Positions 6,116-64,000 of a stretch of DNA of 64,000 nucleotides are shown piece by piece. The translations under genes were made by a program, and so were the position numbers. How positions within the stretch are numbered: position 1 is the first letter of the stretch; each line of letters opens with the position of its first letter. The notes below the pieces were generated by a model. It did no database searches. It had not been told where the DNA came from and worked only from the letters and a program-made list of their open reading frames with translations. This DNA comes from Euglena gracilis (Eukaryota): assembly GCA_039621445.1 (NCBI GenBank), contig CP154954.1, positions 24,130,954 to 24,194,953 of the forward strand. The letters are read 5' to 3'.

Positions 6116-6119
6116 AAGT

Positions 6120-12955: not shown

Positions 12956-12960
12956 CTACC

Positions 12961-18900: not shown

Positions 18901-19522
18901 AAATTGAAGCCCTTGGAACGCCCTATCTACTGGTGTATAGATTTCACCACAACTCCACGCCCAGCCCGAGATACGGGCGTTTTTCGGTCCAAATGGCCGT
19001 TTTGTACACTTTTCCCACTGTTCGACTCAGCCGTTTTCGGCCAAAAAAGTCGAGAAAAATCGTAAAAAATTTCTTCGCCGCAAACCATGTTTTTTGGCCT
19101 CCCGGACCCGGAAAAAGTGTTTTTGAGCCGAAAATGAGCGTTTTTCGACCCGCCAGAGTCCCGTTTTGGGCCGCCAACCCATTGACTTCGGGTCAAAACC
19201 GGGTCAAAAAAGTCGAAAAAAATCGAAAAAAATTTTTCGCCCAAAACCATGTGTTTTGACCTGTCAGACAGATCAAAAGTGTTTTTGAGCCAAAAAAGAG
19301 CGTTTTTTAACCGCCAGCGCCCCGTTTTTTGGCCGCCAACCCATTGTTTTTGGTTAAAACCGGGCCAAAAAAGTCGAAAAAACTCGAAAAAAATTTTGCC
19401 CCAAAACGATGATTTCTGGCCTCCCTGTCCCGGAAAAAATGTTTTTGAGCCGAAAATGAGCCTTTTCCCCGGGCCGGGCCAGGGTGGTCTTCCAAGGAGC
19501 TCAGCTCTACGTCACACCCTGG
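15901..19522. repeat. Tandem array of three ~1.1-1.4-kb units with internal A/T-tract subrepeats
   Basis: Units start ggattatcgat(g/a)tgacc at about 15901, 17075 and 18437; each ends near gagctcagctctacgtcacaccctgg; internal ~120-bp subrepeats (aaaaaagtcgaaaaaaatcg). Confidence 0.85.
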
Positions 19523-23500: not shown

Positions 23501-23970
23501 CAAATCCCGCAGCGAGAAAGCGCAACACAAGCCCAAGAGGATCAGCCTCATCATGCAGTTCTCGTTTTTCACAAAATGCGCATTCGCAAAATTCAAAATA
23601 CCGATCACGATCAACGTGTTCACTGTGCGGATCCACCAACCACCACCCCTCACCCAAATGTCGCTATGCGACTCCTCCCCACTCAAGCCATAGCCATCGC
23701 GGTATGACTCGCAGTTTAAAAGATCATACTTCAGCCAAAATGCATAAGGTAGGTCAACGAACAACCTCTATTGAGGATTATCACCCGGCTTCGGGCAGGG
23801 AGGGGGATGATACCCCACGTAACCAAAGGGATCATCCCTGCTTTAGCGCTCATAAATTCAGAGACGTATATGCGTCAAGAAAGTCAATGGCTGATATGGC
23901 CACTGCTTCGGATTTTGATTTTGTCGGATTTTGTCCCCGCTCAAAATTCTGCCACATTTTTGACATATAG
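20502..23970 (+). pseudogene. gag: Element C long Gag-like ORF, broken (SSIEH repeats, coiled-coil region, capsid-like region, zinc knuckles)
   Basis: KPQWDGDPTTWKQFWRDWEYYW and CFLCNKKGHMSCHC; homologous to B1 gag at 36152-39307. Confidence 0.8.
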
Positions 23971-24180
23971 ATAGTTTTTGTTTTTAACGGTTGTTGATGC
24001 ACTAGGGGATACCCCATGTGTGTCACTTGTGGTTGAATGGATTTACGCTCCAAGAATGCACACAGCTCCGCAAACTTCTTTCCCCCCCAAATCTTCCACT
24101 ACTCATCATTTTTACATACCGTTTTCGATGACAGCAATACCGTTTTCTACAACACCAACACCGTTTTCAACTCAGGGGTA

Positions 24181-24657
24181 CAGTCCCTGGGCGTAAATTT
24201 CCCCCCCCCCCTAGGGAGGGGTTTTTGGGCTCTTGACCAGGGGGGGGGAAATATTCGGCCGTTTCGGGCACTTCGTCCCGTCCCTTCTATTCTTTGAAGC
24301 CATGAAGCCGACCGGGATTCGGAATTCATTTGCCGTATGTTGTGGGGTTGTTATGGTATATTCCCGAAAACCTCTGTTCAGGGCGGTGGGTCTTATTGAT
24401 AGATACATGCCGGGGATGGTTCAATGGACAAAAAAACCCAAAAGATGCCAAGTCCTCGACCCAGGGGCCATGCAAGTGGTGAAGCTGTGCAGCCCTTGGA
24501 TGTACAAAAAAAAAACCCACCTGCCTTAGCTGTTCCTCTGGGGCTGAAGGGGGGGGGAAAGTTTTCGCCCGTTTCGGAGCCTTTTGCAAAACCAGGAAAA
24601 TTCCCAAATTTCAGGGGGGGAAATTTTCGGGGGGGGACAATTTACGCAGAGGGACTG
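24181..24657. mobile_element. Tc1/mariner-pogo-type MITE
   Basis: TIR CAGTCCCT..GCGTAAATT / AATTTACGC..AGGGACTG, flanked by TA on both sides; homology to family B resumes directly after it. Confidence 0.85.
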
Positions 24658-26342
24658 TAAAAAGAAAGTGCCGCCCCCCCCTACCCACCGCATATCCACA
24701 AACGTTCCACATGCGGTAGGGGTAACAAGTAGCTTAACAACCAATCGTTTCACTGGGTTCCAAGACGAAAGCCCTAAGGCCTGAAATTAGAATGGTTTCG
24801 AGTAGTCTCCCAGCTGCTTTCATTTTTCGTTTTCCACCAGGTTTGTCGATTGCAGGCAATCCTGTACACCCCCCGCAGCTAAAATTCGCATACAAATTTT
24901 CTTACACACTCCACCCCCCCAGACCAACATGCGCGACAAGGACAACTACTCAGCACCTCACCCAAAGGTGTGCACTCTAGGAGAAATTTCCACACAACCA
25001 ACAACCAAACACAAAAGGAAATAACTGAAACTAAACTAACCACCACCCTCGCGCCCATGGCGCCCCCGCCACTCAAGCGCCTATGGCCCCCCCACACGCC
25101 TTTGGCGCCTGCCTGCGCATCAAATTGTGTATAGCACAGACGCTGCGCCTATGGCGCCACCCACCCTCGCGCATAGCACAAATCTTGCGCATAATGACCC
25201 CCACCCCCCCCCGCCCCATAAGGCGCCCCCCAAAAACCGCGCCGAGGTAGCTCACACCCCGCGCATATTGCGCTCCCCACGCGCATACCGCGCATCTCGT
25301 GCATATTGTATTGCACACCGCGCCTAGCGCACCCCTCCCCCCCGCGCATATTGCATTGCGCAGCCAGCAAACAACCCCCCCCCCCACAAGATGCGCCCCC
25401 CCGCCCACCCGCGCATAGTGCCAATCTCGCACAATTGCGTATATCTTACAAACGGGTATCTGCCAAACCCAACCATATTATTTTGGGAATAAGTCCCAAA
25501 GATGTTTGTGTACATATTTCACAATGGCATTTTTGTTGTTGATTTGCAAACCACATGCTCAAAATGCAGATTTGGTTTACTTAAGCAACAAAAGTAGCCA
25601 TCCCCCCTTCTTTGACCACGAACTTGTTGGTCAAATTGGCGAACACCAAATGTGTTTGGATCATTCAAGCACACAGTTGCGCTCACTTCAAAGTTATTTG
25701 CAAAAACACAAGGTGTGTGATAAGTTTTTGGGATACATTGCAAATACTGCATTTTTCCCATGAACTTGCACAGATTTGTGAAGAACAGCTATTTTGTGAA
25801 TAAAATTTCTTATTGCAAAAGTGAATCCAGATAGGGAAATAAGTTGAATTCCTTGAGAAAATCTGCAACATAGTTGCCCCCCCCCCAAAAAAAAAGAAGA
25901 AAATTCATTCAAACATGCATTTTTTGTGGACTTGACCACTTAGCCTTAGGTCTGTGTGACCAATACACCCGATGATGTGCAAGGCCTATGGGCCATTACC
26001 CACGTGGTCCATGGGTCCATAGGACCAATTTGCACAAATTGCAAGGACCAAAAGGACCAAAGGTCCACAAATCCATATTATAAAGTTTAAAATCCATAGG
26101 ACCTCAAAAAATGGCACAAAAAGCCATATTGCATTGCTGAAAGTGGCTGAGTTGGCTAAAACAAGCCAAAGAGGCTAGTTTTATGCAGATTTGCACAAGT
26201 GTCACTTTGGCATACCCTCAAAACCACCACAAAAAGCTTCAAAATTTCTGGCACCTCGTAACATGAGGTTTTGACTGTATGTAGTAGTGCCTATGAGATA
26301 GGAACCAAAAGTTGTCTTTATAGAATAAATTATGGAAGCTTA

Positions 26343-27946
26343 CCGGGGATGATCTAATTCCGGAGGTTTTTAATCCGGACGCTCAAATTCCGTTGGCCCA
26401 AAGGCCGGACCGGAATTTGTGATGCTGAACTTCGCGTTTTTTAAATTAGGCCTCGCCTGCTACAAAAAAAATGCCAGAAAGATGGGAAACAGAGACCAAC
26501 AAGGTTGAGCGTGGATTACATGTAACTAGTCTAAAGTTTCACAGAATGCTTCATCCCAGTTGATTCCTTCGTTAGGTGAAATAGTATTTTCGTGTTTCGG
26601 GCTGAGTGACCTGAGTCTGTTTCCCTGCCAGAACGATAGCCTGGGTGATTGAGGAGAGTTCAGAGTTGGTCCAGTTCACTGAAAGTCGATTTTGCAAATT
26701 TGAGTTTTTCGTCCTTTGCAGTGACAGGAAGCCAAGCTGCAGCCTGATACCAGTTTTAATCTGATTCCTCCCCAGTGAACCGCAGAAAACACCTCTGGTT
26801 GACCTTCCAACCTTCAAAGATCGAAAAGATATGGCCAGTTCAAAGTTATGGCATGTTGAGTGAATGATGCTCATTTAGGTTCATTTTTTGGTTGAGGAAT
26901 GTGAGCCACAGGCATTTAGTTAAGTTAATTTTCTCTCAGCCAATTCACTTGTTGACTTTAAAATGCAAGGGAGGAGACAGACTTGAGGGAGGAAGGTTTT
27001 CCTTCTTTTTTTCCCCACAGGACATTGAGATTGAGACAGAGTTAATTTCAATTGAAAGAGTTCACAACGTTGAATTCGAATGGAAAGAAGTTTTGAGAAT
27101 GACCAAATGTTTTGAGCACCTGAAACTTTGAAAAGTGGCAGTGAAGTCAATTGAAGGTGTGCCTTTTTTATTCGGCTGAGAAGCAAGTTCCGGCAAGCAA
27201 GGATTCCACCTTAATTGATTTGCGCGGCCTTGTGTTTTCTTCCTCCGTGTTTCTTTGTGCGTTAGTTTTAGTTTTTTGTAGGGTTTTCTAATGGACTTTT
27301 CCAAAAAATGAAACTTCAACTTCTAAGTCAACTCCCACAGGTTGAAATGGACTTTTTTGAAAACCCGGTTTTGGCGCAAGGAGGCCGAATGCCCGAAATG
27401 TTATGCAAAAACATCTGGCAAAAAAATCAGCTGTTATTTTTATGGGTGGTTTAAGCCTTTCAAAGGGAGGGGTGGGGGTTTTTGAGGTCAAGGAATCCCA
27501 ACAACCCTGTAACCAGCAGCCGAAACCAATTTTTTTTTGGATTCATTTACCCCCCCCCCCTAGTCGTATGACCACCCCTCATTTATGACCACCCCCCGGT
27601 CACAGGTTGCAGGTCATGGGGGTGTTATGACCACCCCCCCCCGGTCACAGGTTGCAGGTTGCGAAAAATTTAACAACACCTCACGGACAACCGCCGCCTC
27701 GTTTATGACCAGCCCCCGGTCACAGGTTGCAGGAACCCGGTCATACGACTAGGGGGGCGGCACTGACGACGAACTCGCGGGGGAACCAAAAAAATGTTCC
27801 AAAAAGGATGCCACGCTTTTTGCGGTCGTTTCACGAAATGCAAACCTGCGTGCTCTGGGCGGTGTAACATATCGGCGTCCGTTTGAAATGTCGACCGAAA
27901 TTAATGTCGTCCGGAATAAGAGCCGCCGGAATTAGGTCGTCCCCGG
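26343..27946. mobile_element. Non-autonomous TA-flanked TIR transposon (pogo/Tc1-like)
   Basis: 21-bp TIR ccggggatgatctaattccgg / ccggaattaggtcgtccccgg (2 mismatches), TA on both sides; faint INWDE remnant on the minus strand near 26560. Confidence 0.7.
27555..27757. mobile_element. Small MITE-like inverted-repeat element
   Basis: Perfect 19-bp IR cccccctagtcgtatgacc / ggtcatacgactagggggg; three internal ggtcacaggttgcagg repeats. Confidence 0.7.
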
Positions 27947-30900
27947 TATAGCCAAAGCTCACTCACACAGGCAAAAGATCAAAGACGTATCTCAGCGCAT
28001 GTAGCTGGCCGATAGGCCATGTTACCCCTCGTTCGAAAGCTCGTTCGATGAGCCGTCCAGCGGTGCAAACAGATCGCTGTAACTCTGCACGGTACTCTTA
28101 TTTGAGGAGATCGTGAAAAATTGAATTAAGCCCAGCCAATCCGGCCAAAAGCCAAATTATGGGCCAGATCTTGTACGATCGTGTACCAGACTGGCAAATC
28201 AGCCTGAAAGGCTTCTATACTGTTCCCCACAACGTTTCTGATGGCTAATTACCATTGGTTACCAGATGGGCTAATGGCCATTTTTTAGTACCTTTGGCAG
28301 CATTCTGCCCATTACCCCCTCTGTATGGGCTATTAGGCCTGGTACAGTTCAGAGGGCTATAGCCCACAATTTGGAGCCATTTCGACTCACTAGAATCATT
28401 TTTAGGATTACTTATGTGCAAATTTTCATTCAAATCATTGATTTTCTGCAATTTTTGGTGATTTTCCCCTATTCTGGCACTCATATCCCTAATGGGAGTG
28501 ATCTTGAGGCACTATGCCAGAGTGGAATGCAAAGGGATATGCTGATAATGGCAATTTTTTCTTTGCTCAAGATGTCATAGACATGTTTTACCTGTATTTT
28601 CAAGCGTATGTTTGCTTTTTTGCGATATTTTTGCACAATTTTAGAGCTTTTTGGGTGATGTGGTGTTATTAGACACCCAAATCCCAAAATCTATATACAA
28701 CAGCAAACATGCAGTGTTATTGGACACTCCAAACAAGCACTATGTGCACTTGGCACATTTACAGTCTTAAATGACTCAAAATGCAACAAAGTTGCACTTT
28801 TGGTTACAAAAATGCAACTCTCGACGCAGAATCGGCATTTATGCCCTAAATCCTGATAGGGATTTCCCTAAAAATCTGACAAAAGTCAGTATTTCTCAGT
28901 GGCATAGTCACTAATGATGAGATTTTGTCATGTTTGCAGTATTTTTTCCTGCTTACCACACCAATGGCATTCTTGCCCCACCCCCCTCCCCCCGCTTCAT
29001 TCAGTGGGATCCCCTTACCGATATAATTCGGAGGACCCAATGGTCATCATCTGCAGCACCAATGGTGTCATTCTGCAAGGTTTATAAGAACCATAGCTCA
29101 GAAATGGTGAAATCCAGCTTTTTTTTCTTGTGCGCAATATGGGGATACCCACAATTTTTCATAATCACACTTTGCTTTTGGAGGTATCATGGCTCTGATT
29201 TTACTGAAAGGTCCAGAGTGATGAATTTCACCGCACTGGAACCATGTCACATCCTTTTATGTGCATTCACAGTTCATTCATTTGCGGTTTTTCAAAGTGG
29301 TATAAGCCACTCCAACCACAGTTGTTCTGTGAATTGGCAGCAGCCTGCCACGACTCCGCATTTTTTCTGCGGTTGTATACCTCAGTATGATCTTTTGGCA
29401 ATATGCCGAATTTTTTTGATTCGGGTATACACCCAGTAGTATTTTTGTGCCATGCATATTCCGCAAGGCAATGTTTCTCGGCGATAAAGCCTACCCCCCC
29501 ATTATTTTTGGCTAATGCCAACCGTTCAGCCTACAGGCTGCACACCCAAGACACAACTGCCAAATCTACAGTTTTTATGGCTACTGCCCGCTATTATGAG
29601 GTATACGCCTCTGGGGATACCCCATCGACAACATCGTGCTCGCGCTGCATTGTGAAGACTTCACAGCGGTATATGCCGCAGTAAGAAGACGCACAGCGTA
29701 CAGCGCGCACACCGTAATAATAGGGCCAACTTGTTACTTTTCGGACTTAAGGCCCCCATAAGACTGCCAGACAGCAAATTTTCTTTATAAGGTCTTTAGA
29801 CCAGCCCCCCACTCCACTCCCCTTTCCCCCCCCGGGAAAAATCGCTGTCGCCGGCAGTTGGTTTTGTAAATAGGGTTTCTTCCCTGGTCAGGTATGACTG
29901 GCCAGGTGCCCCCTCCTTCCACACCCACCCGAGAATTCGTTTTCCGATCACGGAATACACCACCCCAAGTGCCATAGGCACACCCAAACCTGGGAGGATG
30001 GGATTTCTGGAAAGAAAACCTTCCAGCCCCACTTTCCAAGTGGGCTCTTCCACTTCCACCCCTTTGCCGCAATAAGTAGACACCGCATAAGCGGTTAACT
30101 ACTTTTGCGCGTTCCTGCGTTATTTCGCACTTTCCTTCCCACACCCCTGGTGACAGGAGAACCAAAAGCCGCATACGGCTCTGTGACAGGTCCCCGTCCC
30201 CAGGACTGTGTCCGGCATTCCGACTGGCCTGGTCCAGTAGGGAAATCAGGCATAGCCCTGGGAGGGGGATGTGTACCAGGCAGCCGTAAGGCCATGGTAC
30301 TGTGTATGTAGGTATAAGCCTACGGCCAGATATAGCTCTGAGCCCCATACACAGTACTATGCTAGGTGGTATTCCTAAAGATGGCCAACGGCCTGAATTA
30401 GGAATACCTAACCCTTATTCTGGTTCTCCTCTCCATAGGTGGTTTTCGTATTCTTATTCTTTTGTTTTCAGGTTTCATTAGCCCAAAAGGGCACATCAAG
30501 ATTTGAAGATTTGAACTCCGAGTGGAGTACACTTGTGGAACTAGTTTCCCAAGAAACCTTCTGGTTTGCCTTGTGCTCTGCATAAGCCCAAAGGCAATAA
30601 AAACTAATATTTAAGTGAAAGACTTTCTTTTTGTTACTCTCCTGGTTCTGTTCCCACGGGAGAGTGTAAGTAGGCCGACAGGCAGTGGGAATAGAGTCAG
30701 GGGACGTACACTAATGTCCGTGTAATACACCAAACCGGTCATCATCGCCTGGGTGCACATACACCACAGGGCTGGAGGGGTATTCGCGATGTTCAAAATT
30801 TGACGACAGTGGTCATCCCACAATACCTGTGTGAGGTGGTGTGGTGCCGGGTTTGCGCTCATACGCGTCACCCGGTTCATCTTCTCCGCCGTGCGGTGGA

Positions 30901-31292
30901 ACATCACACCCGCATACGGTGGGAGGCGACGAGAGCCTGATGGCTGAGATGATCGCGCTTCCGCGGGCATCGGGGTCAACCTGGTACTGCTGCTGGCTTC
31001 AGGGTTTCCCTGAGCCGCAGTCCGTGCAGGTGGCTGCGTACCGTATCGGTACGCATACTGGTCAGGTGGAGGGTGAGTGGTGGGGTGGTAAGGCGGTCCT
31101 CCGCCTGGCTCCCTTCCACCGGGCAGCATGATACTGCCCGGGGTCGGTGCGGTGGGATGGTTAGGTTGTTGGTTGTGAGGTGGTAAGGGTAACCGCTGGA
31201 CTATTGTCTGGTGAAAAGAATTCTGCGGAAAGAAAGAATGATAAGGATCAATAGTAAAAGAAAAGAAAACAACATGGGTTTCCCATGCGTTC

Positions 31293-32400
31293 TCAAAAAC
31301 TTGTCATGGAAACATCAATGTTATGCTTCTTGTTCCACAGCTTCCAATCTTGCTGGACATACCCAACAAACCTGGTTCCTGGCTCCCAAGGGTCCTCCTC
31401 GGGCCCATACCCTTTCCAGCGGACCTTCCAAAGGTGCATACCTTTGTCGATTTTGTGATCGAAAGTTTTATCGACTACAAAGTCGTCCGTCTCAGGTAAT
31501 CTGGAACGGGGCTGGAAGTGTAGGCACGGGATGGGTTTCCCATCCGGCGGAGACAAGTGTGGCTTGAAGTCGTCCATATGAACGTCCTCAACACCATTCG
31601 GTAATGCAATCTTGTATCGCCCGCTGGTACCTAGTCTTTCTAGGATTTCACAGGGGCCGAGCCAAAGGGGGTCCAGTTTGGAAGACTGCATGCGAGTACG
31701 GCTATTCCGCACCCACACGCGGTCACCGGGACTATACACAGGTGACTTGAAAATTTGCAAATACGATTTCCGTTTAGTTGCATGAATATCAGTGACTCGC
31801 TTCTGGACTGCAGAACGTAGATTTTCTACTTCCGCAAACCAGGTCTCGCAACTGACACTCGTTCGGGCGGGTCTCTCCAAAGGGAGATCCCCTATGGCCG
31901 GAGGGTCCCGTCCGAAAACTAATTTATAAGGGGAGTGGGGCAAAACCAACCGTGTTAAGGTATTGATATAAAACAAAGTCCATGGTAGCACTGATATCCA
32001 GTTGCTGCGCGAGTCAGCCAGTGAAAGGCGAAGCATATTCACGACGGATTTCACGGCTGCCTCGGCTCTACCATTGCCTTTGTCGGTATATAATGGAAAC
32101 ATGTTGCTCAATTCCGAGTAAACCGCACAAAGTGGTGAAAAACCTTGAAGAAATCAAATGGTCTTGATCACTCACAATTTCATTCGGTAAACCCATCAAA
32201 CAGATACATTTCTCCAAAAATGTAGTTGCCAAACTTTGGGCAGTCAACCCTGACTTCTGGCATGGAAAGGCTACAATGTACCCACTCAGCCTGCAGACGA
32301 CAACAAAAACGTAATCGTAAATTTTGTCGTCCGTTCCTTTGCACGGTTCTAATTCCAGAAAATCCATGCAGAGGTCCTTGCTTCCACGTCGGCATCTTCC
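31293..32400 (-). pseudogene. pol: Element B1 integrase core plus chromodomain (HHCC region deleted)
   Basis: CMDF, SDQD, GNGRAE; WLGPC; FVVDK..WKVRWKGYGPEEDPWEP. Confidence 0.9.
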
Positions 32401-32539: not shown

Positions 32540-33950
32540 AAATACCAAGGGGCCCGACTGAGCGAATCCGCTACTTTCTGTGTGTGACCAGGGGTATAAA
32601 TAACCAAAAGGTTGAATTAACTCAAGAACTCATGCCATCTGCAACGCCTTCCGACCGATGACATGGCCTTGTTCAAATCCTCGGTGTACCAGTGTTGGAG
32701 ACTCTCATGATCGGTCTTGACGAGGATCTGGACGAGGCTGCTGCCGACCAAGCTTCGAAATTTCTGGAGTATAAGCACGATTGCGTAGGTTTCCTTCTTG
32801 CGTATACTTCACTTAACTTTACCTTTACCGTCGTCGCCCTGTAGCTTTCTGCTGAATAAAGCCACAGGTCGGAGTTCGTTCGCCGCGTTTTGCTGGCTAA
32901 GAACTCCGCCAACAGCGTAATCGCTGCTGTCGACTTCCAGGACATATGGTTTGCACGGGTCCGCGATTTCGAGGACAAAATTCTCTAAAAGCAACACCTT
33001 GATTCTCTCATGGGCGTCGCGCATTTGGTCATTCCAAATGACTTTGGTGTTGTCAACAGCCCGTTTTTGAGCTGTTTGGTGAGGGGCACCACGATTTTGG
33101 CGAAGTCCCTGACATGTATCACGTAGTAATGGGCTAATCCCAAAAATCCTTTGAGGTGAGTAATCGTTTTGATTACCTCAGGGGTCCATTTCTTCGTGGC
33201 TTCGAGTTTGCTCGGAGCGGCTTTCCGCTGTCCATTGCTGAGGATGTGGCCGCAAAATTTTATAATCTCGCGAAACAAATGCATTTTCGCGCCTTTCGCG
33301 AAAAGCACATGTTTTTCAAAAGAGGTTAATACCGCGCAAACATGGTGAAAGTGTGTGTCGAGGACATCCTCGCTTGATTTTGCGGATGATGGTGGTGTTC
33401 CCACCAGCACATCATCAATGTAGACAATGGCACACGGTAAGTCGCGTAAAACCCATTGAATCATGCGTTGAAACATGCCTGGGCCATTCTTAACACCCAT
33501 GGGGAGTACCGTCCATTGGTACACACCCTTGGATCTCACGAATGCCGTGTATGCTTGGGAGTCAGGGTGTAAGTGCATTTGATGAAAACCGTCCTCCAGA
33601 TCGAAAATTGACCACAACCGGTTTTCTGATGGTTTGGTGATCAAATCCTCGTTCAGGGGGAGCGGGAAGGCACCATCCCTTGTCTGGGAGTTCAGGTACC
33701 GGTAATCCAGCACCAGTCTCCATTTCTCCGGACCTGAGGGGTCTGGGGGTTTAGGAACACCAAATGCCTTGGATGTCCACTCGCTTTTTGACGGTACAAT
33801 CCACTTGCGCTGAAGAAGCTTCTCAATCATTTCATTGAGAGCTTGTTCGCCTTCTCCCGAACAACGAAAAAATTTTCGGTGCATTGGTTTGGCTCCTTCC
33901 TTAAGCTCAATTTTGCAAACACCGAACGGACAGCGTCTCGCGGGGTCATT
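32540..33950 (-). pseudogene. pol: Element B1 reverse transcriptase and RNase H, frameshifted
   Basis: WRLVLDYRYLN, DLEDGFHQ, PMGVKNGPGMFQ, YIDD; EVDSSDYAVGGVL, ADSLSR. Confidence 0.92.
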
Positions 33951-34119
33951 GTCGCACGCGTATACTGGACTTTCCAGCACACCGTGAAATTCACGGGTAA
34001 TACGCGAACAGAATTCTTCTGACTTAGGATGCTGACCTGCACTCCCGATGACCACGGAAACCGCCAGGGTTTCCCTGGGGTTACCGAGCTTCCTCGTCAC
34101 CGCGAATGCGGACGTTCCG

Positions 34120-34540
34120 AATGCATCGAAGAAGTATACGCGAAAAATGATTTCTTGCAAAGGTGGTAATATTTTACCACAAAAAAATTCAAAAATCGGT
34201 ACATTGGTGGGTAAATCCCACCAATGAAAACAGACGGACGATAATTGGGTGAGCCATTCCGCTTCCGGAATGATGGGTATGAGAATAACTCCACGGGATT
34301 CATCCCGCAGAATTTTCTCAACCGCACATTCGATAAGTTTTGGAGGGGGGTGCATCCATAACACCGTATCACCCCAAATTTATCAAATGCGTTGGAGTGT
34401 TGTGACCAATGACGTGGCAAACGGGCTTGTGCATTGGATGAAAAGGCATCGATTTCCAATGCCAAATCAAAGGAATCAGCCAATGTCGCGATTTTGGAAA
34501 ACCATCGTTCCAAAATGCGATATTGACCAAAATTGAAAGC
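34120..34540 (-). pseudogene. Element B1 Dam-like methyltransferase domain (frameshift near 34375)
   Basis: EIDAFSSNAQARLPRHWS..SNAF, then LWMHPPPKLIECAVEKILRDESRGVILIP..EWLTQL; same motif series as element A, with HPPP at the NPPY/F position. Confidence 0.75.
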
Positions 34541-48600: not shown

Positions 48601-50898
48601 TGATGTGGCGATAGACGGGGATTGCCACGTTTCCGGCGGTGCTTTCATGGAGGTCAACGAAAGTGCTTCGGGCGCAGCATATGCTACACTTGGCGGAGGA
48701 GGGCCAGTGCCAGCATGTGATAGTTTTTGGCCTGTCGTGTGGAGCTTATATCGCCCTGATCCCAGGCGGTGGTCCGTTTCACCATCCTGGTAAGGATCTT
48801 GGCCCTCTCCGGGCCCAGTCCTCGCCACGTGCCCATGGCTAGCTTGGCGAACGACCAGCCGCCGTTGCGACATGGGACTGTCGTATTTGGTGTGCTTGGC
48901 CTGTTCCCGTCTTTTAAAAAAGGTCCTCCGGCGTTCCCTCGAGCCGCTCCTTTCTGCTGCTTGCCAGCCGTGCGCCACGGTGAGGTCAACCGCTGTAGGC
49001 TTACCATCCTGCCACGTGGCGAGTAACAGGTCGGCTGGCCGGAGAGAGGTGTCTGGTTGGTTGGGCACCGGGCCTTCGCGTTGGACAGTTTGGCCGTTTG
49101 CGGACAGAAGGTTAAACGGAGCGTTCTGGACGGCGTTGTGTCTTTTGGCGAAGTTGTTCCGAATGCAGCACATGTCGTGGTCACCGTGCACGTCGGTAAC
49201 GTTCTGGCAGCCCGCACACGTCCCAGCGGAGTCCGCTAGGGGCAGTCACAGCCACCAGTTCAGCCCGAGGGGGTAGTCTGCCGCATCGACTCTGATGTGG
49301 AGGGCCTTGTTGGGTGCCACTGCCATCCATCCGTGACCGATGCCATGTGCATGTTCCATTAGGCGCGCCTGGTCTCTTGGTGGTATTCGGTTCAGAAGGC
49401 CATACACCGTGGTGCGGTACAGCTGGGTTTGCCACCATCGCTGCGAAGTGTCATTTCAGGAGGCGGAGGCAAAGGACTCGGTGGTCAGCAGCCGTTGGCT
49501 CTCGTGTTGCTGTCGCCCTATCGCGGAGGAGAGGTCATGGCAGGCTGCTGGCATACTCTCTCGGACAGGGCTGCTGCGTATGTGGGGCATGCCACTTTTC
49601 TTGTGTCCGTGGGTGTAGTACTGACACAGAGCCGCAGGGCGGGCAGCGCCCTGACAGGCAGCTGGGATGCGGAGCCCGCATCCCCCATTGGAGAGAGGAA
49701 GGGCCGTTTGCTGTCGTTGTTCTGTGCTGAGCGCCTGCCCAAGGATGTCTTCAAAGGCACCGAAGATAGTCTCCCCGCATCGGGTTACCTCCCCCTGGGC
49801 CCCGTAGGAGTCGGGTGCTCGCCGGAGGTGGTTGACTTTATAACCATCCAGGCAGGACCGGAGGAGGTGATGAGCGAGCTGGGGGTGTGTCACCGAGGTG
49901 ACCAAGTCTGCAGCTTTCTCAATCCTGGCCGTGGCCTCTGCCCAGGCCGCCGCGGTGTGGCCGGTGGTGGTTAGAAAGTCAACCGGGCAACCGAGAACGG
50001 TGATGCCGGAGTCTACGGCCAGGGGCACGTGTTGGAGGTGCTCTCTGTCTGGTATGGCTCCGGCGGCAGGTCCCCAGGCCACGCGTTTGGCCAAGTTCAG
50101 TTGGACCCCCGTTCGTTCGCCCTCCACGCGGAGAAAATCCAGGCATTTCTGTAGCACCGTACGTTCGCCGATCAGTAGCCCGTCGTCGAGGTACCAGGAG
50201 GACCAGAGCAGTTCGGCCGGTTGTGCGATTGTTTCGGCTATGGTGTGTAGCCCAGACGCGAAGCCAACGGGCCCCAGAGGACAACCTTGGTGCGTGCATC
50301 TTGTGGACGACAGCACCCGCCCCTCGCTGAACAAGTGTGCCGGTTGGCCATACGCAAACCGAAAATAGTTGAAAAGGGCGGGTGTGCACGTCTGCGCCTC
50401 TTGGTGTATGACGGTGTGGTCGAGGGTATTGAAGGCGTTCTTCAAATCTACCTGAAGAACCTCCCAGTTCCCCCTGGGGTCCAGCTTCCTGACCAGGTTT
50501 TGGACCGTGATGGCGATGGATTCAGACGCATTGGAGACTCCGACCCCAAATTGGAGGGGGCTTAGCCGAGCTACTTGATCCTTGGCGGCTCCTGTGTGAA
50601 GGAGTGCTTTCCCCACCAATCGGCGAAGGGTTTCGCCCACTGCGATGGGCCGGACGCCGTCGACTTTTTTTCCGCAAGGGGGTCAGGTTTGCGGAGCACC
50701 AGCTGGGGGCATGCTCTGCGGGCAGGTTGCCTTCCACCCATGCGGCAGCAAGCTGGCCCAGTGCCGTGAGAAGGCGGGCGTCATGGCCAGGGCGGCGGAC
50801 AGCGTCTTGCAAGTGGCATGGGCGCAGGCGTGAGGGGGCGGGGGACGACGTGCGCGGGAAGCGGAGGATGGCTTCACGCAAGAGTTCTTCCCATCGAA

Positions 50899-54122: not shown

Positions 54123-55329
54123 GCCTGCCTAGGGAGCCCACCCCCCCGGGTGGGGTTGGCAGCACAGACCCTGGCGCCTTTGGCGCCAGGGAGCCAAAAG
54201 AGCTTTTCAAAGGGATGTTCCTGGGCACAGGCCGAAATCTGACCCCCCGGGGGGTCGTGCCTGCCTGGGCAGGCACCCCAAGGCACTCCGGACCAGGAAA
54301 TTTCTTAAGCCGGAGGGTACCCTACCCCCCGGGGGGGCGTTCCAGCCAGCCAGCAGCTCAAATCCAGCCAGCAGCCCAAATTCGGGCTGGGAGCCCCCCC
54401 CCCCCCGGGGGTCAAGTGAAATAAAGTCGGGTCCAGCCTGGCCAGAGGCCGGGCCAGCCGGCCGCAGGCCGGCCCAGCCGGCCGAAGGCTGGCCGGAAAA
54501 CTGGGCTACCCAGCTCACCTGTCCCTTCATTTTTTCCATCACGGCCCCCCAGCCTTGACCTAGCTCCACTCATCAAAATGTCGAAAATGGCAAAAATGTG
54601 TTAGAAAATATTGTTTTCGTCGACCCAGCCGAGCCCAGCCCCCTCCAGCCCCGGACCCCCCCCCCCCCCCCCCCCCCACCCCCGGGGGGCCCGGTCCAGC
54701 CAGCAGCTCATATCCAGCCAGCAGCCTTTTTGCCAGCCGGAGGCTGGACCCCCCCGCCCCCGGGGGGGTCCTCAAGAAATTCCCTGCTCCGGACCCCCCT
54801 TGGGGTTGGTAAAGAACAGCCTGTTGCGGGCGCGCCGTGGCAGCATTTGGTGAAGTGTGGATTCATGAGCATGGAAGCGTGTGTTACCCACCTGAAGCAA
54901 AATTCTGGGTGCATGTCATTGGGAGCGCCCTCAATATCCTTCCTCAAGGAAAGCCTTTTGCTGACATTGCGGCGTTGGGAGTTGGTGGTGGATACCAAGC
55001 AGACATCAGATGCTATACGCTTGGCAGCAGGCCCCAAGAGGCAAAGCAGAAGACAAAGACTTCAGAAGTTTCTTCTGGAGTCAAGTTCGATTGTTCTGAG
55101 GGTTTTTCCCTCTGACAAAACCAATGGTGAAACTGTGGAAGCTTGACAGTTGAGAATACTACCTGTGGGGGAAGGATAGAAAAGTGCTGACGTGTCCAGG
55201 GGCAGATCCCAGAAGGGTCTGCCACGATTTTACCAACTGGTTTCCACAGTGGTGCGACCGTCACAGAACCCACTCTGCAGATATCCTACAGAGCTGGGAC
55301 GTGCCTGGTACACATCCCCCGCCCAGGGG

Positions 55330-56273
55330 GTTGAGCCCCCGCGTCCCCCCCGCGTCCCCCCCCGCGTCCCCCCCGCGTCCCCACCAAGTGGCTTGGTGTC
55401 CTTTTTTTGTAGAGGCTTTTCGATGAAACCGTCTGAGATTTAGGATTTTTTGTGTGAAAATGTTGGACTACCAGTCAAGCAACCCCTACTGGTTTTGCAA
55501 AGAGTGCCCATTTGCTTCTTCTTTTTTGTTCGGCATAATCAATGCTATTCGTAGACTGTCCCCCCTCAACCATTGCGCACACTTCCATTTTGTATCCTTT
55601 TTTTGTGGACACCGTTCCCATCACCCGTTTTGGCGGATCCATTCCCAAAAATTACCAGCCAAAGTATGCGGGGAACGTTTGTAAAATGCAAGTTTGTCTG
55701 GTTTTCTGGGCCAACGGCTCCGGGAGCGAAAACACCCCATGGAAAAGACATTGCCCCACAGAATTTTTAGGCATGAGTTTGGCCTCGTGGATGGGGCCCA
55801 CAATAAAATTGTCAGCTTCATTGCACCATTTGGATTCATGCATTATTTTTTTAAAAAAAACCCAACTTCACGTTTGGTTTTGATTGAATGAGGGGCTAAT
55901 TCTTAAGAAGGGTGGAATCAACATCAACACAAATACAATCCTTGTCCGAAACTGCACGAGGCAAATTCCTATTTTTATGATATGCCGACAAATTTGGAAT
56001 TTTTTTAGGATGGGGCACTACCCCCCCCCATTTGAACCACCCGAGCATTTGGGTTGGTTAAAAAAAATTTCAGGCACTGAATTTTTTTTGCCCTTGAACC
56101 AATTTACACGTGGCGCGAAGCGCCGAAGGAAAAATTTCAGCGTTTTTGGGTACCTGGAAAATGCGGGCCCGGGTCGGTCAAAAAAATGTTATTTCATGGT
56201 ACCCAGAATGGTGGTGCCCCCGCGTCCCCCCCCGCGTCCCCCCCCGCATCCCCCCCGCGTCCCCAAAACCCCC
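55330..56273. mobile_element. ~0.95-kb insertion next to the B2 PPT, unclassified
   Basis: Absent from B1 (4956-4980 is contiguous); cccccgcgt repeats near both ends. Confidence 0.6.
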
Positions 56274-57312
56274 CCAGGGCTACGCCCGATTTCCTTCATG
56301 GACCAGGGATTCCAATGATGAAATGGGCCAGTTAGGATATCTGACGCTTCCCCGGTGGGGTTCACTTCTACTCCATTCGGTGTCTATCCTTTCCGTACAG
56401 TGGCATCCACGCAAAGCCCAAAAACACGCAAAAGGTTAGCCGCGTTTCGCGGTTACCTATTAGCCGTTTCTGCTTAGGTGGGGTTTGAAAAAGCCCACTG
56501 TGGGAAACGGGGCTTGGCAGGTTTCCCGACAAAATGTCCCATCCACCCACTTTGGGTGTGCCAAAGACACGAGGGGTTGGTCAAGCGTATTCGCTGAAAA
56601 CCCGAGGGGAGAGGTGTGGAAGGGGGGGGGGGCAGGCTCCTATCCTGGTCATACCCGGATAGGGCTCCTAGGCGGTCATATCCGCACTAGGAAATAAAAG
56701 GCTACTTACAAAACCGACTGCCGGCGACAGCTTTGCGAGGGTGGGAGGAAAGTAGGGAGGAGAGGGGGGCTGGCTTAGGCCGGAACAGAATTTTTGCTGT
56801 CTGGCAGCCTTAAACAGCCTTATTAGCCGAAAAGTGACAAGTTGGCCAATTATTACGGCGTGCGCGCTGTGTGCTGTGTGTCACTTAGCGGCTTGCTAGG
56901 TTTCCCGGCTGCCAAGGTCTTCACAGCAGCAGCTCCTTCACGACGCAATAAGAGGCGCTTACCTCTTGCAGACGGTTTCCGTCTGCATGGCCATTGGTAG
57001 AGGGGGTGCCGGGGGGGGGGGTTCTTGGATGCTTCCATCCAGAGCGCAGAGTGTGTGACACAGACCCAGGTTCATCCCAGGGCTGTTTAGCGATTTCCGC
57101 TACCAGTGTACGGTGTATGAATCTCCTGGGGTGTCCAGGCTCCATGAAGGCGCTTACCTTACATGGGCCTGGTAATGCCGTTTCGGCATTACATCCTTTC
57201 CAACCGCCAACAATCGTCGCGGGAGTCCAGGAGATCTTCCACCAGGACCATCTGGAATTGTGGTGGTGGTGGCCTGTCCATGAGCCAGGTTTCTGGCGAT
57301 TCTTAGTCAAAG

Positions 57313-60300
57313 TCAGGTGCCACACAGTCCCGAACCCATCCTTCCTTTGGTTGCACTCGCTCTTTCCGAGAGGAACCACTGCAGCTCCTCCCAGAATTTC
57401 CTGGGCAGAGTGGCTGGCCAGATGAAGTGATTCATCCGTGGGTGACTGGCTGACACCTGCGGGGCATTCCACGGGTGGAAGTGAATTGACATGTGATACG
57501 CACATTCCGTGCGGACTGTATGGGGTCGTAATACGGCCCCAAGCCAGTCTTTCCAGGTCATCCCGTGGTTTTCGGGTGGCCATTGTGGCAGGCACCAGCG
57601 ACCGTTTTTGTCGTGGGTTGTGAACAGGCGGAAAAAAATCTTTTCCCTGTCCGCTGTCTCCCAGAGGTAAGGTAATCTTACCCCTGCCTCCTTAGCAGCG
57701 AGGCGTATCGCCCCACTGTCGATCTGCCAGCCACGGGCCATTCCCCTGTGGCGGTAGTCGTCAAGCTTGTGGTTGGAGTACTTGAAAAAGTCCTTGTACT
57801 TTTTGTGCAAGGTGGATTATTCCTCCAGTGGGTTCTGGGCACTTGGCACGATTGTGCGAACTGCGCCTTCGGCAGTTTGCCAGAAGGTACCTCGAAGGCA
57901 GTTGACACAGAGTAGTGGTACATTCGTACCATCGCGCTCGGTGTAGCTAAAATTGTGCTTGTGTGTCCAACTGTCCACGCACTTGGCGCATACCAAGGCG
58001 GCACATTTGGGGAGGATTGCACACGTGGACGAGGGGTAATCCCAAGTGAGGTGCACTGTTATACATCTTGTGGCATACAGTGCAAAGCCACACAAAACGG
58101 CTTTCCGTCGTTTTGTCGAGGAGGAATTCCTCACCGAAGGATTGGGCCAAAACACGGGGGGATCTGGAATTGTAATAATTCCAGGTCACGTTCCGATCAA
58201 AGGACCATTTTAGGTCCTCACAGAACAGTGGCTCAATCCACCGGTTGAGGCACTTATTTGTCCTCAGTTTGTTATCGATCATCATGTACCTTTTTTTCAG
58301 GTCATGAGTTTCAGGATCATCCTGATTGATCGCGTTCCAGTCGATTACAACTTCGTCTTCCGAAGGTGTCTCGGCTGTTGAGGCGCGGGATTTTCCCTGC
58401 CCCTTTGACGGAGGTTTCGGCTGTGAGGTTTTTCCATAGCCGGATGACGCGACGTGCGTGAACCCTTGTCCCGAGGGTAATCCCCGAGAAGAGGATGCAG
58501 CACCCTGGCCGCCAGCACCACCACCGCCTTTCGGTGGGGGCTGATCACCAGATTTCGGTGTCGGCTTGCAAGGGGCGGCGCCTGGCTTTGTTTTCGCCGG
58601 GGCCTTCGGACTTCCGGTTTCCGGAGTATCCGAGGGCCGGCGTCCGGTGTCACGCTTGCTCGACCAGGTGCGTGCTGACGCTTGGGACGGGGGTCTTCTC
58701 CCCGACGCCGGGCGTTGTGGACCTTCAGCAGGGGTTTCCCGAGCTGATGGTCGTCCTACACGTTCCTTAGTGGCTTCCGTGGGTTTCCCAGGGGTAGCCG
58801 TGGGGGATGGTGTTGGTGTAGGCTTGGCCGGCGCACTTCGCGCTGGTTGAGCCTGTGGTGGAGGCATGGACGTCCTGTTTTTCAGGCGCCGGTGTCCGTG
58901 TGCCTTGACGCTTCTGTGCTGTGATGGTGGCTGCGCCCTGAGGTGCTGGTTCATCCCGTGCCCCTGGCGGCACTGCTGGTGCTGATACAGGTTCATCCTG
59001 TACTGACGCGGTTATTGTTGTCTCCACGGCCATGGCGGTCTGTTCGCCTTCCGTCCGTGTCGCTTCCGACACTGGCGGTGGCGCCGCCGTTGGGGGAGGT
59101 TCATCCTCCACCATGGCTGTAGTGTCAGGTGTTTCTTCCACCGGCTGGGCAGTTTCTGCCGCAGCTGCAGAAGAACTGGCCGCAGTGCCACGTGGAGTGA
59201 CAACTGCAATCAGTGACCGCAAACCACCAAGTACGCGCCCGCCCAGTGAGGTGCGCCGCTCAGGTCCTTCACCTGAAGTGGGCTCCTCCGCTGGCTCCTC
59301 TGTCGACGGGGTTTCCCCGGAAACAGGGAACTTGAGGCGTAATACCTCAGGCGTGTGGGGTACCGTCTCCGGCGGGTTTTCTCGCGGAGGTGTTGGTACA
59401 CCTGTCGTACTCAGTGAGGTAGGTGAGAGTGGGACAAGTGTCATTTTACCTGCTGGCGCTGAGCAGTTTCTGCCACAGTGTCCAGCATCACGACAGATGG
59501 GCTACGGGTTTCCCGTGCCGGAGGTTCTGCTGGCTGAGGTTCATCTTCGGCCATTGGGACCGCTTCCTCCTCCTCCTCCGCTTCCGGAGGGGATTCCTCT
59601 GTGTGTAGTTGTGCTGCAGAACGCGGGTCTTTTCAGCTCCTGTAGCACCCTTGTGCGTCTGACAGGCGGTAAAAGCATATACTTTCACTCCTGTCAGAGT
59701 TGGGGTATGGGGGCGGCCACGACGCTCTTACCCAGCTTCCGGGTAGAGGTTCTGGCTCGTCGTCGTCGATCAGGCAGAGGTCTTCCCACTGCTGTCGACA
59801 ATTCCCGCTCACGCCGTATTCTCCTGTGTCTTCCAGGAAAGCGGGCAGCGGCAACGCATAACGTGGCTGTTTTTCCACGTTTGCCGCGAAAAAAGCTTGG
59901 AAGTCCTCCCAGATCAGGATATTCCCGAACTGGGTGTCGAGGTGCTCCCGTAGACCGATTCCGGCCTCCTGCCAGTCCGGTTGCAGGTTCATCCTGCGTC
60001 GGTCTGGGTCATTCGGCCTGGCGTCTTCCTCGGTGTATCCCCCGAGGTAACCACTTTCTGTGAATATTCACATCAGCGGTCATGTATTCCAGGAAATAGG
60101 TATAAACCTCCAGGACGTAGGTAATCCACGCCCTGTGCCAGTACTGTTGCAGCAGAAATATTTTTTGCCGGTATTGTTTCAGCATCTTTCGGTCTTGCGT
60201 TCCGATCTGGGGGTTCCGGCACTGATGCAGGAGAACTCTCCTGGTCGGCTGGCTGCCAGCATTCTCGGCAGTCGGAGGCGGTTTTCCGCGTTCTCCGAAA

Positions 60301-62511
60301 CCCCAGAAGTCAACGATGTGAACTTCCTTGCAAAACTGGCATTCCAGTTTGTACCGCTGGGCTTACGCGAGGTCGACGTCCAGGACATTGAACAGCGTGC
60401 CATACATGCTGTCCAAGTATACTTGGAGATTGCATGTGAACATTACCGCGTCCTGCGCCTGGAGTTTCTGCGGCAGGGGGTAATACTTCCACTGGATTCC
60501 CAGTGCTCCGACGGAATACATGTGCGTGAAGATTTCCTTCAACTGTGCGACGAACGTTTCGCCGTCTTCACATGCAGGCATACAATCGATGTACGTTGGA
60601 CGGTTTCGGTCGGTAAAAATGTCGAAATTCTGGCAGGGGTATCCTAACCAGAACCACAGCTCCCAGAATCCGGGCATCCGGTCCAGGATAACTTCATTCG
60701 AATGAGGGTATCACTCAAAAGCATGAAGTTCGGAACTGTAGAAAAAACGTTTGCAGTGATCGCTAATACGATTCTGCACCACTTCGAGCACCGCATCCGG
60801 TGGTCGGTGGATCACGTTACCTGCTTTTGTGAACTTTTGGAGATCTTCATCGATTTTTGGCCAGATCCCCTCAAGGTACTTGAACACCGAGGCAACGTCG
60901 TAGTCCTTCGTTTTCGAAGGTTCGGCGGCTTTTCCGCCTTTTCCTGCTGGGGTTCCGGCAGATTTTCCGCCCTTGCCTGGAGCTGGCCACCTTTCTCCTG
61001 GCCTTTTCCTTTCCCCTTACCCTTGCCCTTTCCTTTCCCCTTACCCTTTGTGTTGAACAGCCATTCGAATGTCGCCTAGTAATCCCAGTATTCTGGGTTT
61101 TCTGGTGTAAACACAGGGTAAGTCACGGATTCCGTGCTGGACGTTCGAGCAAATTCCTGCTCAGCGTCACCACGATTCGAGTAAACCAGCGCGACCGGGG
61201 GTGGTCGGGTTTCCCGACGTGCCTGTTCTGCCGTCACATCTGGCGCTGGCGAAGCTTCTTCCTCAGCGTCGACGTGCATCGCTGCGGGCGGATTTTCCGA
61301 CCTCGGTGAGCGGCGCTGTGGCTGCGGCGTCAGATTTTCCGGGCCGCGGTCACGCTTGCCGGCGGCAGCGCTTGTGGGTCGTGCTGATGGCGCTTCCGCC
61401 ACAGCAACGTCCTGCTGTCGCGCTGGTTGACGTGATCGTGATGGAGCTGGGACTCCCGTGAGAGCCGACACAGCACCATCATACTGCTGGCGCTCTTCTC
61501 TCGTCATTTCCGCCCGGGCAGGATATCCCTGGCCAGCGGAAACAGGGGGGCGACGTGCGATTTGTCGTTGGATCGTCACAGCATATTCATACTGTTGACG
61601 TTCCTCCTCGGAATTGAACGGCGGCCAGTCCACGGGTTAACGGGTTCATCCCGAAGCGTAGGCACTGGCGCCGCACGGCTTCCCGCGGACGAGCGCTTCG
61701 GGCAATGTCAGACGTCGGGGGAGGGTTTCCCTCCACAGGACGTCGTGGCATAGGGTCAGGTATGGTTGGGTGGGGTTGAGGTGGATACACGTACTGATCC
61801 CGTGGCACTGGTTCCTCCTGGGGATATTTCCCAGAGACGGTGTACTGAGACACATGCTCCTGCGCAGGATAATCTCGCCGGGGCATGCGCTCAGGGGATC
61901 GAATAATACTTTCTTTCACGCGTGGGTTTTCACTCCGGACAGGTGCTTCCCCTGTCTCTTCCTCGGGTAATCCGGGGGAGTGAGCACGAAAATGTGCGGT
62001 GTAAGTGCCAACTGGTGGTACCTGTCGTGCTACCTGTGGCGGGACTTCCACGCCCAGGTCACGCATGGTAATGTCCGCCGCGAATCCCGATCTGTCCGAG
62101 TCGGTGTAATACACCGAACCGGTCATCGTCGCCTGGGCACTCATACACCACAGGGCTGGAGGGGTGTTCGCGGTGGTCAAAATTTACGGCAGTGGTCATC
62201 CACAACGCCTGGGTGAGGTAGTCTGGTGCCGGGTTTGCGCTCATACGCATCACCCGGTTCATCGTCTCCGCCGTGCGGTGGATCATCACACCCGCGTACG
62301 GTGGGAGGCGACGAGAGCCTGATGGCTGAGATGACCGCGCTTCCGCGGATATCGGGGTCATCCTGCTACTGCTGCTGGCTTCAGGGTTTCCCTGAGCCGC
62401 AGTCCGTGTAGGTGGTTGCGTACCGTATCGATACGCATACTGGTCAGGTGGAGGGTGAGTGGTGGGGTGGTAAGGCGGTACTCCTCCTGGCTCCCTTCCA
62501 CCGGGCAGCAT
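57313..62511 (-). pseudogene. Element B2 ORF3: ~1700-codon accessory ORF with C-terminal RING-like finger; several frameshifts and stops
   Basis: Chain of same-strand ORFs (62059-62511, 61587-62180, 61076-61633, 60363-60677, 59633-59992, 58767-59444, 57947-58996, 57817-58155, 57313-57810) between the pol stop and the 3' UTR. Confidence 0.72.
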
Positions 62512-62672
62512 GATACTGCCCGGGGTCGGTGCGGTGGGATGGTTAGGTTGTTGGTTGTGAGGTGGTAAGGTTAACCGCTTGAGTATTGTTTGCTAAAAAA
62601 TCTGCGGAAAGAAAGAATGATAAGAATAGATGATAAAAAGAAAAGAAAACAACATGGGTTTCCCATGCGTTC

Positions 62673-64000
62673 TCAAAAACTTGTCATGGAAACATCAATG
62701 TTATGCTTCTTGTTCCACAGCTTCCAGTTCTGCTGGACAGACCCAACAAAACTGGTTGCTGGCTCCCAAGTGTCCTCCTCGGGCCCATACCCTTTCCAGG
62801 GGACCTTCCAAAGGTGCATACCTTTGTCGATTTTGTCATCGATAATTTTATCGACTACAAAGTCGTCGGTCTCAGGTAATCTGGAACGGGGCTGGAAGTG
62901 CAGACACGGGATGGGTTTCCCATCCGGCGGTGACAGGTATGGCTTGAAGTCGTCCATATGAACGTCCTCAACACGATTCGGTAATGCAACCTTGTATCGC
63001 CCGCTGGTACCTAGTCTTTCTAGGCTTTCACAGGTGCCGAGCAAAAGGGGGTCCAGTTTGGAAGACTGCATGCGAGTACGGCTATTCCGCACCCACACGC
63101 GGTCACCGGGACTATACACAGGTGACTTGAAATTCTGCAAAAACGATTTCCGTTTAGTTGCATGAATATCAGTGACTCGCTTCTGGACTGCAGAACGTAG
63201 ATTTTCTACTTCCGCAAAACAGGTCTCGCAACTGACACTCGTTCGGGCGGGTCTCTACGAAGGGACATCCCCTATGGCCGGAGGGTCCCGTCCGAAAACT
63301 AATTTATAGGGGGAGTGAGGTAAAACCAGCCCTGGTAGGGTATTGATATAAAACAAACACCATGGTAGCAATGATATCCAGTTGCTGCGCGAGTCAGCCA
63401 GTGAAAGGCGAAGCATATTCACGACGGATTTCACGGCTGCCTCGGCTCTACCATTGCCTTTGGGTCGGTATATAATGCAAAAATGCTGCTCAATTCCGAG
63501 TAAACCGCACAAAGTGGTGAAAAACCTTGAAAAAACCAAATGGTCTTGATCACTCACGATTTCATTCGGTAAACCGATTAAGCAAATGCATTTCTCCAAA
63601 AATATATTTGCCAAATTTTGGGCAGTCAACCCTGACTTCTGGCGTGGAATGGCTACAATGTACGCACTCAGCCTGCAGACGACAACAAAAACGTAATCGT
63701 AAATTTTGTCGTCCGTTCCTTTGCACGGTTCTAATTCCAGAAAATCCATGCAGAGGGAGGTAAAAATGTCAATGGTACGGGGAAAAAGTCCATCGTACCA
63801 GGGGGGGTGCCTCTGCGGAGTTTTACCGCTTGACAAATTTGACACCGTTGCGCTATTCGTAAACAGCGTGAGTAAAGCACCTTCTCGCTCAGGGTTGTGC
63901 AACACCTGCGGCCCACCAACGAAAGAAGTTTGGGGGCCCCAGGGTGACCGTGGTTGTGAGCACAAAATCGCATCATCAACCAGGTCCTGGGGGATACAAT
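62673..64000 (-). pseudogene. pol: Element B2 integrase (HHCC, DDE) plus chromodomain
   Basis: AHNHGHPG..RCQICQ; CMDF, SDQD, GNGRAE; FVVDKII..WKVPWKGYGPEEDTWEP. Confidence 0.92.

Follow-up and report, generated by a model that had tools for sequence, protein, structure and literature searches.

The extra region and its host element

The stretch of Euglena gracilis DNA studied here (the window: 64,000 nucleotides of GenBank assembly GCA_039621445.1, contig CP154954.1, positions 24,130,954 to 24,194,953 of the forward strand) is a nest of retroelements, and self-comparison, together with a reading of the element ends, places in it two copies, B1 and B2, of a retrotransposon on the minus strand that we call element B. 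Both copies carry sequence in the sense of pol between the stop codon of pol and the 3′ untranslated region (UTR), and this extra region, about 5 kb long in B2, is our subject. We consider it to be a decayed additional coding module of an abundant chromovirus family of the Ty3/gypsy group, with elements of about 16 kb, and put the probability of this reading at roughly 0.7. The features of the region and of the two copies are collected in Table 1, in window positions.

Element B is a Ty3/gypsy chromovirus, because its pol matches the corresponding Pfam families: RVT_1 at 32985–34379 (E 8e-22), the integrase core rve on the minus strand of B2 at 63998–63258 (E 1.7e-8), and SH3_Tf2-1 together with Chromo at the end of pol in B1 (31296–32153), where Chromo has an E-value of 4e-6 and 27.0 bits against a cut-off of 25.1. 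The long terminal repeats (LTRs) of B1 have TG..CA ends and a 5-base target duplication on their flanks, and the length of the element without its inserts is about 16 kb. The 3′ UTR of B2 (57320–56269) matches B1 at 5974–4958. An earlier interpretation of this DNA, made from the letters alone (the sequence-only reading), had placed an additional sense region in an env-like position after the chromodomain, and the pol stop, the rve match, the B1 chromodomain and the minus-strand orientation all bear this out. Its statement that the region is seen in both B copies holds in part: B1 matches three parts of it in self-comparison (62100–62600, 61774–62074 and 57347–60434), but is split by three insertions and lacks the 1.34 kb at 60435–61773, for which no second match was found within the window.

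The composition that had been described is real, with a start rich in Pro, Arg and Ala (the N-terminus itself is Pro/Gly/Arg-rich), a Lys-Gly repeat at about 61060–60990, a C-x2-C...H-x-C motif, a P/E/T/A stretch and a Cys-rich end. As predicted from their translation, the products would be mostly disordered, the P/R-rich start, the Lys-Gly repeat, the acidic P/E/T/A linker and a basic P/K/S/T tail surrounding two compact blocks in which Cys, His and aromatic residues abound and which we call blocks G and C. In block C, the spacings C-x2-C and H-x-C/H-x-H occur in pairs, and in B1 (13892–13077) the block is open for 272 amino acids, among them 10 Cys, 15 His and 10 Trp. The translations of the extra region contain no signal peptide, membrane anchor or fusion-peptide-like segment, and the highest Kyte–Doolittle mean over 19 residues was 1.08 in the 13 pieces scanned, so that no hydrophobic segment is present. 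An identity as Env was rejected on these grounds (no signal peptide, no transmembrane helix, no hydrophobic segment), in agreement with the sequence-only reading. A nested, unrelated transposon was rejected as well, there being no reverse transcriptase, transposase or recombinase domain in the extra region.

Reading frame in the two copies

The single continuous open reading frame (ORF) of 5.2 kb that had been proposed was found in neither copy; both copies in the window are dead. The stop-poor path through B2 has eight frame switches (at ~62200, 62184, 61622, 61000, 60043, 59470, 58880 and 58014) and five internal stops (61078, 60713, 60365, 59635 and 57819). Stops make up six of its 1727 codons, whereas the alternative frames hold 46 and 58 stops and 200 shuffles gave 61 ± 7. 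Since avoidance of stops was the criterion for picking the path, the count by itself makes coding look more certain than it is.

Most of the comparable lesions are private to one copy. Four of the eight B2 frame switches (~62200, 62184, 60043 and 58014) are not found in B1, one is shared and three have no comparable position. Of the five internal stops, two (60365 and 57819) correspond to sense codons in B1, another is common to both copies, and the remaining two fall in the stretch present only in B2. B1 has its own lesions: block G contains three stops and a 1-base gap, the N-terminal part has one gap of 8 bases and another of 1 base, and at 58872–58490 a 190-base gap is accompanied by rearrangement. 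At three of the B2 lesions, most contigs of the DNA sequencing run X1 differ from B2: every contig over 60713 and 57817 does so, and 107113 of 126789 depth units are without the extra base near 60039–60043.

Two lesions, a TGA codon and a frame switch, are common to B1 and B2, and because of them a single 5.2-kb ORF is not shown. We rejected programmed −1 frameshifting as a way past the shared TGA, because in the −1 frame stops flank it on either side.

Table 1. Features of element B and of the extra region, in window positions
Feature	Position	Strand	Remarks
Copy B1, complete	5′ LTR 40725–40297; 3′ LTR 4955–4528	minus	LTRs 95.3% alike
B1 insertion 1, nested LTR element	19813–30712		Own 444-base LTRs, 98.2% alike
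B1 insertion 2, 3.6-kb repeat block	15901–19520		
B1 insertion 3, chromovirus	~5975–12993	plus	
Copy B2	Leaves window at 64000; terminal LTR ~55328–55033	minus	
Stop of pol (integrase–chromodomain), B2	62674–62672	minus	B1 has a stop at the equivalent place
Pyrimidine-rich tract ending in CAG	62652–62602	minus	Kept in B1 and B2; ~70 nt after pol stop, ~90 nt before ATG
Extra region, B2	62511–57313	minus	In pol sense, between pol stop and 3′ UTR
First ATG of extra region	B2 62511–62509; B1 31129–31127	minus	Kept in both copies
N-terminal part	62511–61079	minus	P/R/A/S-rich, dotted with Tyr, low complexity
Lys-Gly repeat	61075–60990	minus	B2 stop 61078–61076 just 5′ of it; frame switch inside
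Block G	60905–59636	minus	Aromatic-rich, globular, ~420 amino acids
C-x2-C...FWGFG...H-x-C motif	60341–60219	minus	Sole part with relatives elsewhere (P0001–P0003)
TGA common to B1 and B2	59635–59633	minus	Possible true end of a first cistron
Acidic P/E/T/A-rich linker	59632–58872	minus	Open in both copies
Frame switch common to B1 and B2	59501–59444	minus	Two open frames overlap
Block C	58487–57316	minus	Basic P/K/S/T tail, then Cys/His/Trp-rich globular end
Terminal stop of last open stretch, B2	57315–57313	minus	
B2 private 1-base gaps	~62200, ~62184		N-terminal part
B2 frame switch	~61622		N-terminal part
B2 stops in block G	60713–60711, 60365–60363		
B2 extra base in block G	60043		Absent from B1
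B2 private lesions in block C	35-base gap at 58014; stop 57819–57817		
B1 counterpart of B2 57347–60434	12994–15900	minus	90–94% identity
B1 counterpart of B2 61774–62074	19521–19812	minus	89% identity
B1 start of extra region	30716–31129	minus	Open as far as the nested insertion

Selection on the extra region

The ratio of nonsynonymous to synonymous substitution rates (dN/dS) was measured between B1 and B2 codon by codon, using the Nei–Gojobori method, and the frame of each ungapped block was set by its stop count rather than by the result. The comparison, which had been suggested along with the sequence-only reading, gave a non-neutral pattern: the pooled value in the frame of the path was 0.46 (bootstrap confidence interval 0.34–0.60; 1106 codons), against 0.93 and 1.42 in the other two frames. 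The integrase and chromodomain, taken as a control and compared between B1 and B2 in the same way, gave 0.53. The extra region is thus decayed coding sequence, and purifying selection has constrained it as strongly as the integrase.

The four sub-regions all have values below 1, with Fisher p from 0.045 down to 4e-5 and off-frame values of 0.81–2.74: the N-terminal part gave 0.53 (219 aligned codons), block G 0.51 (260 codons; 0.23 for 60434–60044), the linker 0.33 (p 1e-4) and block C 0.42 (p 4e-5). When codon usage was modelled on the pol of element B, 13 of 14 pieces fitted the path frame better than either off-frame alternative; only the first 104 codons did not.

These values bear directly on whether the open stretches might be chance products of a G+C-rich, low-complexity, non-coding 3′ region. 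The G+C content is 0.55–0.59, much of the translation is of low complexity, and long open frames exist on the plus strand too, one of them, at 58942–60063, having 373 codons. However, dN/dS falls well below 1 in the path frame only, codon usage resembles that of pol, the stop count is about one-tenth of that in the other frames, and the motif of block G is kept at 47–60% protein identity in unrelated contigs; we regard a non-coding origin as highly improbable.

The same plus-strand frame could also be a gene in its own right, that is, an antisense additional ORF across 58942–60063, of the sort found in Grande, RIRE2 and Retand, plant elements from non-chromovirus lineages. Plus-strand frame 1 is open in both copies over 58942–59440, within the linker, and gives a ratio of 0.48 there, but this frame and the sense frame have their wobble positions in common, which is enough alone to explain the value; because of this coincidence, dN/dS cannot settle the strand at 58942–59440. 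Over 59441–60063, the rest of its ORF, the same frame gives 1.45, which argues against a real antisense gene, and the flanking blocks are constrained in sense. Antisense additional ORFs do occur in the interval from pol to the 3′ LTR (PMC7264820). An antisense gene at this place nevertheless seems to us very unlikely.

The decayed module, as we read it, specified either a single very large protein or, with about equal likelihood, two, the first (ORF X1) reaching from 62511 to 59633 and the second (ORF X2), which begins in the next frame, from about 59500 to 57313. Two cistrons are as likely as one ORF because the TGA and the frame switch are shared, yet selection goes on downstream of them; they are also the simplest account of these observations. 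Were there a single 5.2-kb ORF, the two common lesions would have to be those of an already defective ancestor, or the TGA a parallel change of the CpG type. Constraint on both sides of the lesions fits with one ORF, as do the overlap of the two open frames by 57 nt at 59501–59444, where one small indel would explain the switch, and the share of CpG transitions, which make up 15% of the differences between B1 and B2. Against this, downstream sequence should have drifted neutrally after truncation of an ancestor at 59635, but the values for linker and block C are 0.33 and 0.42, and both lesions are present in two of two copies. We therefore treat a single ORF with inherited or parallel lesions as a real possibility, but not as the one to be preferred.

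Occurrence in the family

On positions 55000–64000 of the window, 37,756 short contigs of DNA run X1 align, and they cover 18 of the 18 bins of the extra region. Their summed depth there is comparable in order of magnitude to that over the integrase and the UTR, although this depth does not measure copy number and the window itself may derive from the X1 sample. Seventeen DNA runs under one organism label contained 34–44% of the sampled words. The element B family is very abundant, and the extra region is a family-wide part of it: the sequence-only reading had allowed for a region found only in these two copies, and the X1 contigs, which cover every bin, show otherwise.

Homology and structure searches

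An exhaustive HMMER search with block G against 1,835,955,588 proteins returned three matches, all of them short fragments centred on C-x2-C...FWGFG...H-x-C. The closest, P0001, has 60% identity to block G (E 9e-22), and P0002 has 47%; P0003 is a third relative, which appears to run out of frame partway along, relative to the copy in the window. The 272-amino-acid block C of B1 gave no homologue of near, shorter or longer length in a protein search, the blank for longer proteins being weak evidence. A tblastn comparison of every piece with the remainder of the window found no internal paralogue (best E 0.12). Scans of metagenome contigs with the profile A2 and with a B1 block-G piece gave no matches, and the scan of viral contigs gave none either.

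Ten B2 pieces of the extra region matched no Pfam family at E ≤ 1. The same was true of four out of five further pieces (four from B1, one from B2), the fifth, block C of B1, giving two sub-threshold rows only, and P0001–P0003 together with two more pieces matched no family at E ≤ 5. When block C was examined for zinc fingers, FYVE had an E-value of 0.24 and 12.0 bits, against a cut-off of 27.8, and no RING or PHD model stood among the Pfam matches. Comparison of block C, block G and profile A2 with the sequences of the PDB gave a best E-value of 0.24, which is noise. The best ESM Atlas score was 0.83 for block C, with RING-bearing clusters at 0.80–0.83, and 0.79 for block G, but scores below 0.9 are leads only. 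AlphaFold2 models had a predicted local distance difference test score (pLDDT) of 33.4 for block C, from a single sequence, and of 44.9 for block G, from a five-row alignment, and are too poor to use. The term ‘uncharacterised accessory protein’, used in the sequence-only reading, is a fair description of additional sense coding sequence without a known domain and without Env features.

The searches also bear on where the region came from. One or two fragments of host genes may have been transduced into an ancestor of the family and then inherited, which would be compatible with our preferred explanation. Third-position GC is 0.62–0.69 in blocks G and C, against 0.46–0.55 in pieces of pol, neither of the other two LTR elements in the window has anything that corresponds to the module, and PMC7264820 describes additional ORFs of both the transduced and the family-wide sort. 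In the opposite direction, no host-like homologue was found, the 1.84 billion proteins yielding only three short fragments, of which P0003 is apparently out of frame partway, and the region is not confined to two copies, as the X1 contigs attest. Capture from the host is possible, but we think it on the unlikely side.

Expression and possible splicing

The pyrimidine-rich tract that follows the pol stop, conserved in both copies, could be the 3′ splice site from which a subgenomic mRNA arises, in the manner of env genes. Among the reads of three sparsely sampled RNA runs, no RNA joint was found near 62602, and a short spliced-leader motif was not found within the window. The reads of runs X21 and X22 form a pile on the Lys-Gly repeat, at 61001–61049, which runs into unlike flanks on both sides; because the flanks are unlike, the pile does not come from element B, but from another, well-expressed transcript.

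Interpretation as an accessory module

Several observations weigh against our reading of the region as a decayed coding module. The selection test, with its pooled value of 0.46, rests on two copies and about 240 substitutions and leaves out 60435–61773, which is single copy in the window; within the linker, a plus-strand frame with coinciding wobble positions has a low ratio as well. No intact copy was seen, both copies being broken, and the TGA and the frame switch are common to the two. The three RNA runs, under the same organism label and sampled at 5–6%, gave 85, 106 and 201 reads on 9 kb, too few to judge expression or splicing; these reads lie on both strands, mostly at 90–95% likeness, and most of those from X21 and X22 belong to the other transcript, which has a similar KG repeat. 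With regard to function, the region has no Pfam family at the curated cut-offs and no PDB match below E 0.24, and both the Atlas scores (0.83 and 0.79) and the pLDDT values (33 and 45) are low.

A function can be suggested only tentatively, and we would expect it to be wrong more often than right. Because long charged disordered tails accompany two Cys/His-rich blocks, zinc-dependent binding of nucleic acid or chromatin suggests itself, and the product might be an accessory factor of this kind that acts in trans for the family, its message being a subgenomic mRNA with the splice acceptor at the conserved pyrimidine tract and CAG. This mechanism draws on the sequence and on general knowledge of retroelements. 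The anti-silencing role that the sequence-only reading had put forward would be a conjecture on the same footing: the searches yielded no homologue of known function, no fold that could be used and no transcript dedicated to the region. It is a bolder and distinctly improbable proposal that blocks G and C would represent an undescribed family of retrotransposon accessory proteins, with a zinc-binding C-x2-C...FWGFG...H-x-C core, disordered charged tails, a subgenomic message of their own and action in trans, such as a dampening of host silencing or a guiding of integration. If true, such a family acting in trans could help to explain the very high copy number of a 16-kb chromovirus in a large genome.

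Comparison with known systems

LTR retrotransposons are known to carry additional ORFs in sense orientation after pol and ahead of the 3′ LTR (‘aORF-3S’; PMC7264820), and those described are mostly Env-like, with transmembrane features. The module of element B resembles them in position and orientation, in its presence across copies of the family and in having a function without assignment; it differs in its chromovirus host, in its lack of a hydrophobic segment, in its size of about 1700 codons and in possibly comprising two cistrons. With the env of retroviruses and errantiviruses it shares the position of a third coding region after pol, and the pyrimidine tract/CAG could serve a spliced subgenomic mRNA; it differs from env in that no signal peptide, membrane anchor or fusion-peptide-like segment is present and no spliced reads were found.

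Other LTR elements have fixed protein modules beyond gag-pol. By their titles, LTR retrotransposons of bdelloid rotifers have captured extra ORFs (PMC5408684) and orchid Ty3/gypsy elements carry an ALKB-type demethylase domain (PMC9289625); these cases involve a named domain or sharing between types of element, whereas blocks G and C match no Pfam family. Block C resembles the cross-brace zinc fingers of the RING, PHD and FYVE types in its C-x2-C and H-x-C/H-x-H spacings and, at the level of leads, in its RING-bearing Atlas neighbours, but no Pfam zinc-finger model reaches its cut-off for this block.

Titles and the beginnings of abstracts in the literature contained no description of such a module. 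The kind is known, being that of a sense additional ORF; what sets this case apart is the chromovirus host, the size of about 5 kb with a possible division into two cistrons, the non-Env character and the two globular blocks without a family. Although additional ORFs of LTR retrotransposons are known, almost none has an assigned function. The family fills a large share of the repeats of its host, and some 5 kb of ‘unknown’ sequence in each copy is now explained for annotation. If an intact natural copy exists, it would provide a tractable case for the contribution of an accessory protein to runaway amplification of a retroelement.

Other parts of element B and neighbouring elements

B1 has about 3 kb more of coding-like sequence (40250–36150, minus strand) ahead of its gag zinc knuckle (~36600) and of the D-T-G motif of the protease (~35700), including an open stretch of 282 amino acids at 39361–38516 that is rich in Gln and Leu, has the look of a coiled coil and is without a Pfam match. 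Element B thus seems to have accessory sequence at both ends. Directly after the 5′ LTR of B1, at 40296–40280 on the minus strand, stands TGGTAGCAGA, which resembles a primer-binding site and may match the 3′ end of initiator tRNA-Met. Between the 3′ LTR and the UTR of B2 lie about 940 bases (55329–56268) that have no equivalent in B1 and are bounded by (CCCCCGCGTCC)n arrays at 55336–55382 and 56217–56264; the depth of the DNA run falls about tenfold or more at 55602–55902.

The window seems to be without an ordinary host gene, and Rfam and tRNA scans of its 64 kb gave no matches. The repeat block inserted in B1 replaces the equivalent of B2 60435–61773 and consists of imperfect repeats with a mutual identity of 80–88% over a few hundred bases. 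The nested LTR element is younger than B1 by the likeness of its LTRs (98.2% against 95.3%), and its plus-strand ORFs at 20636–23970 match no Pfam family. Between B1 and B2, an open stretch on the minus strand at 49456–50682 bears a reverse transcriptase (RVT_1, E 7.5e-11). The plus-strand chromovirus nested in the 3′ part of B1, chromovirus A, encodes protease, reverse transcriptase, RNase H, integrase and chromodomain at 6550–12473 and has no extra ORF after the chromodomain; its ratio of observed to expected CpG is 0.22 (8001–12000), as against about 1.0 in the pol of element B.

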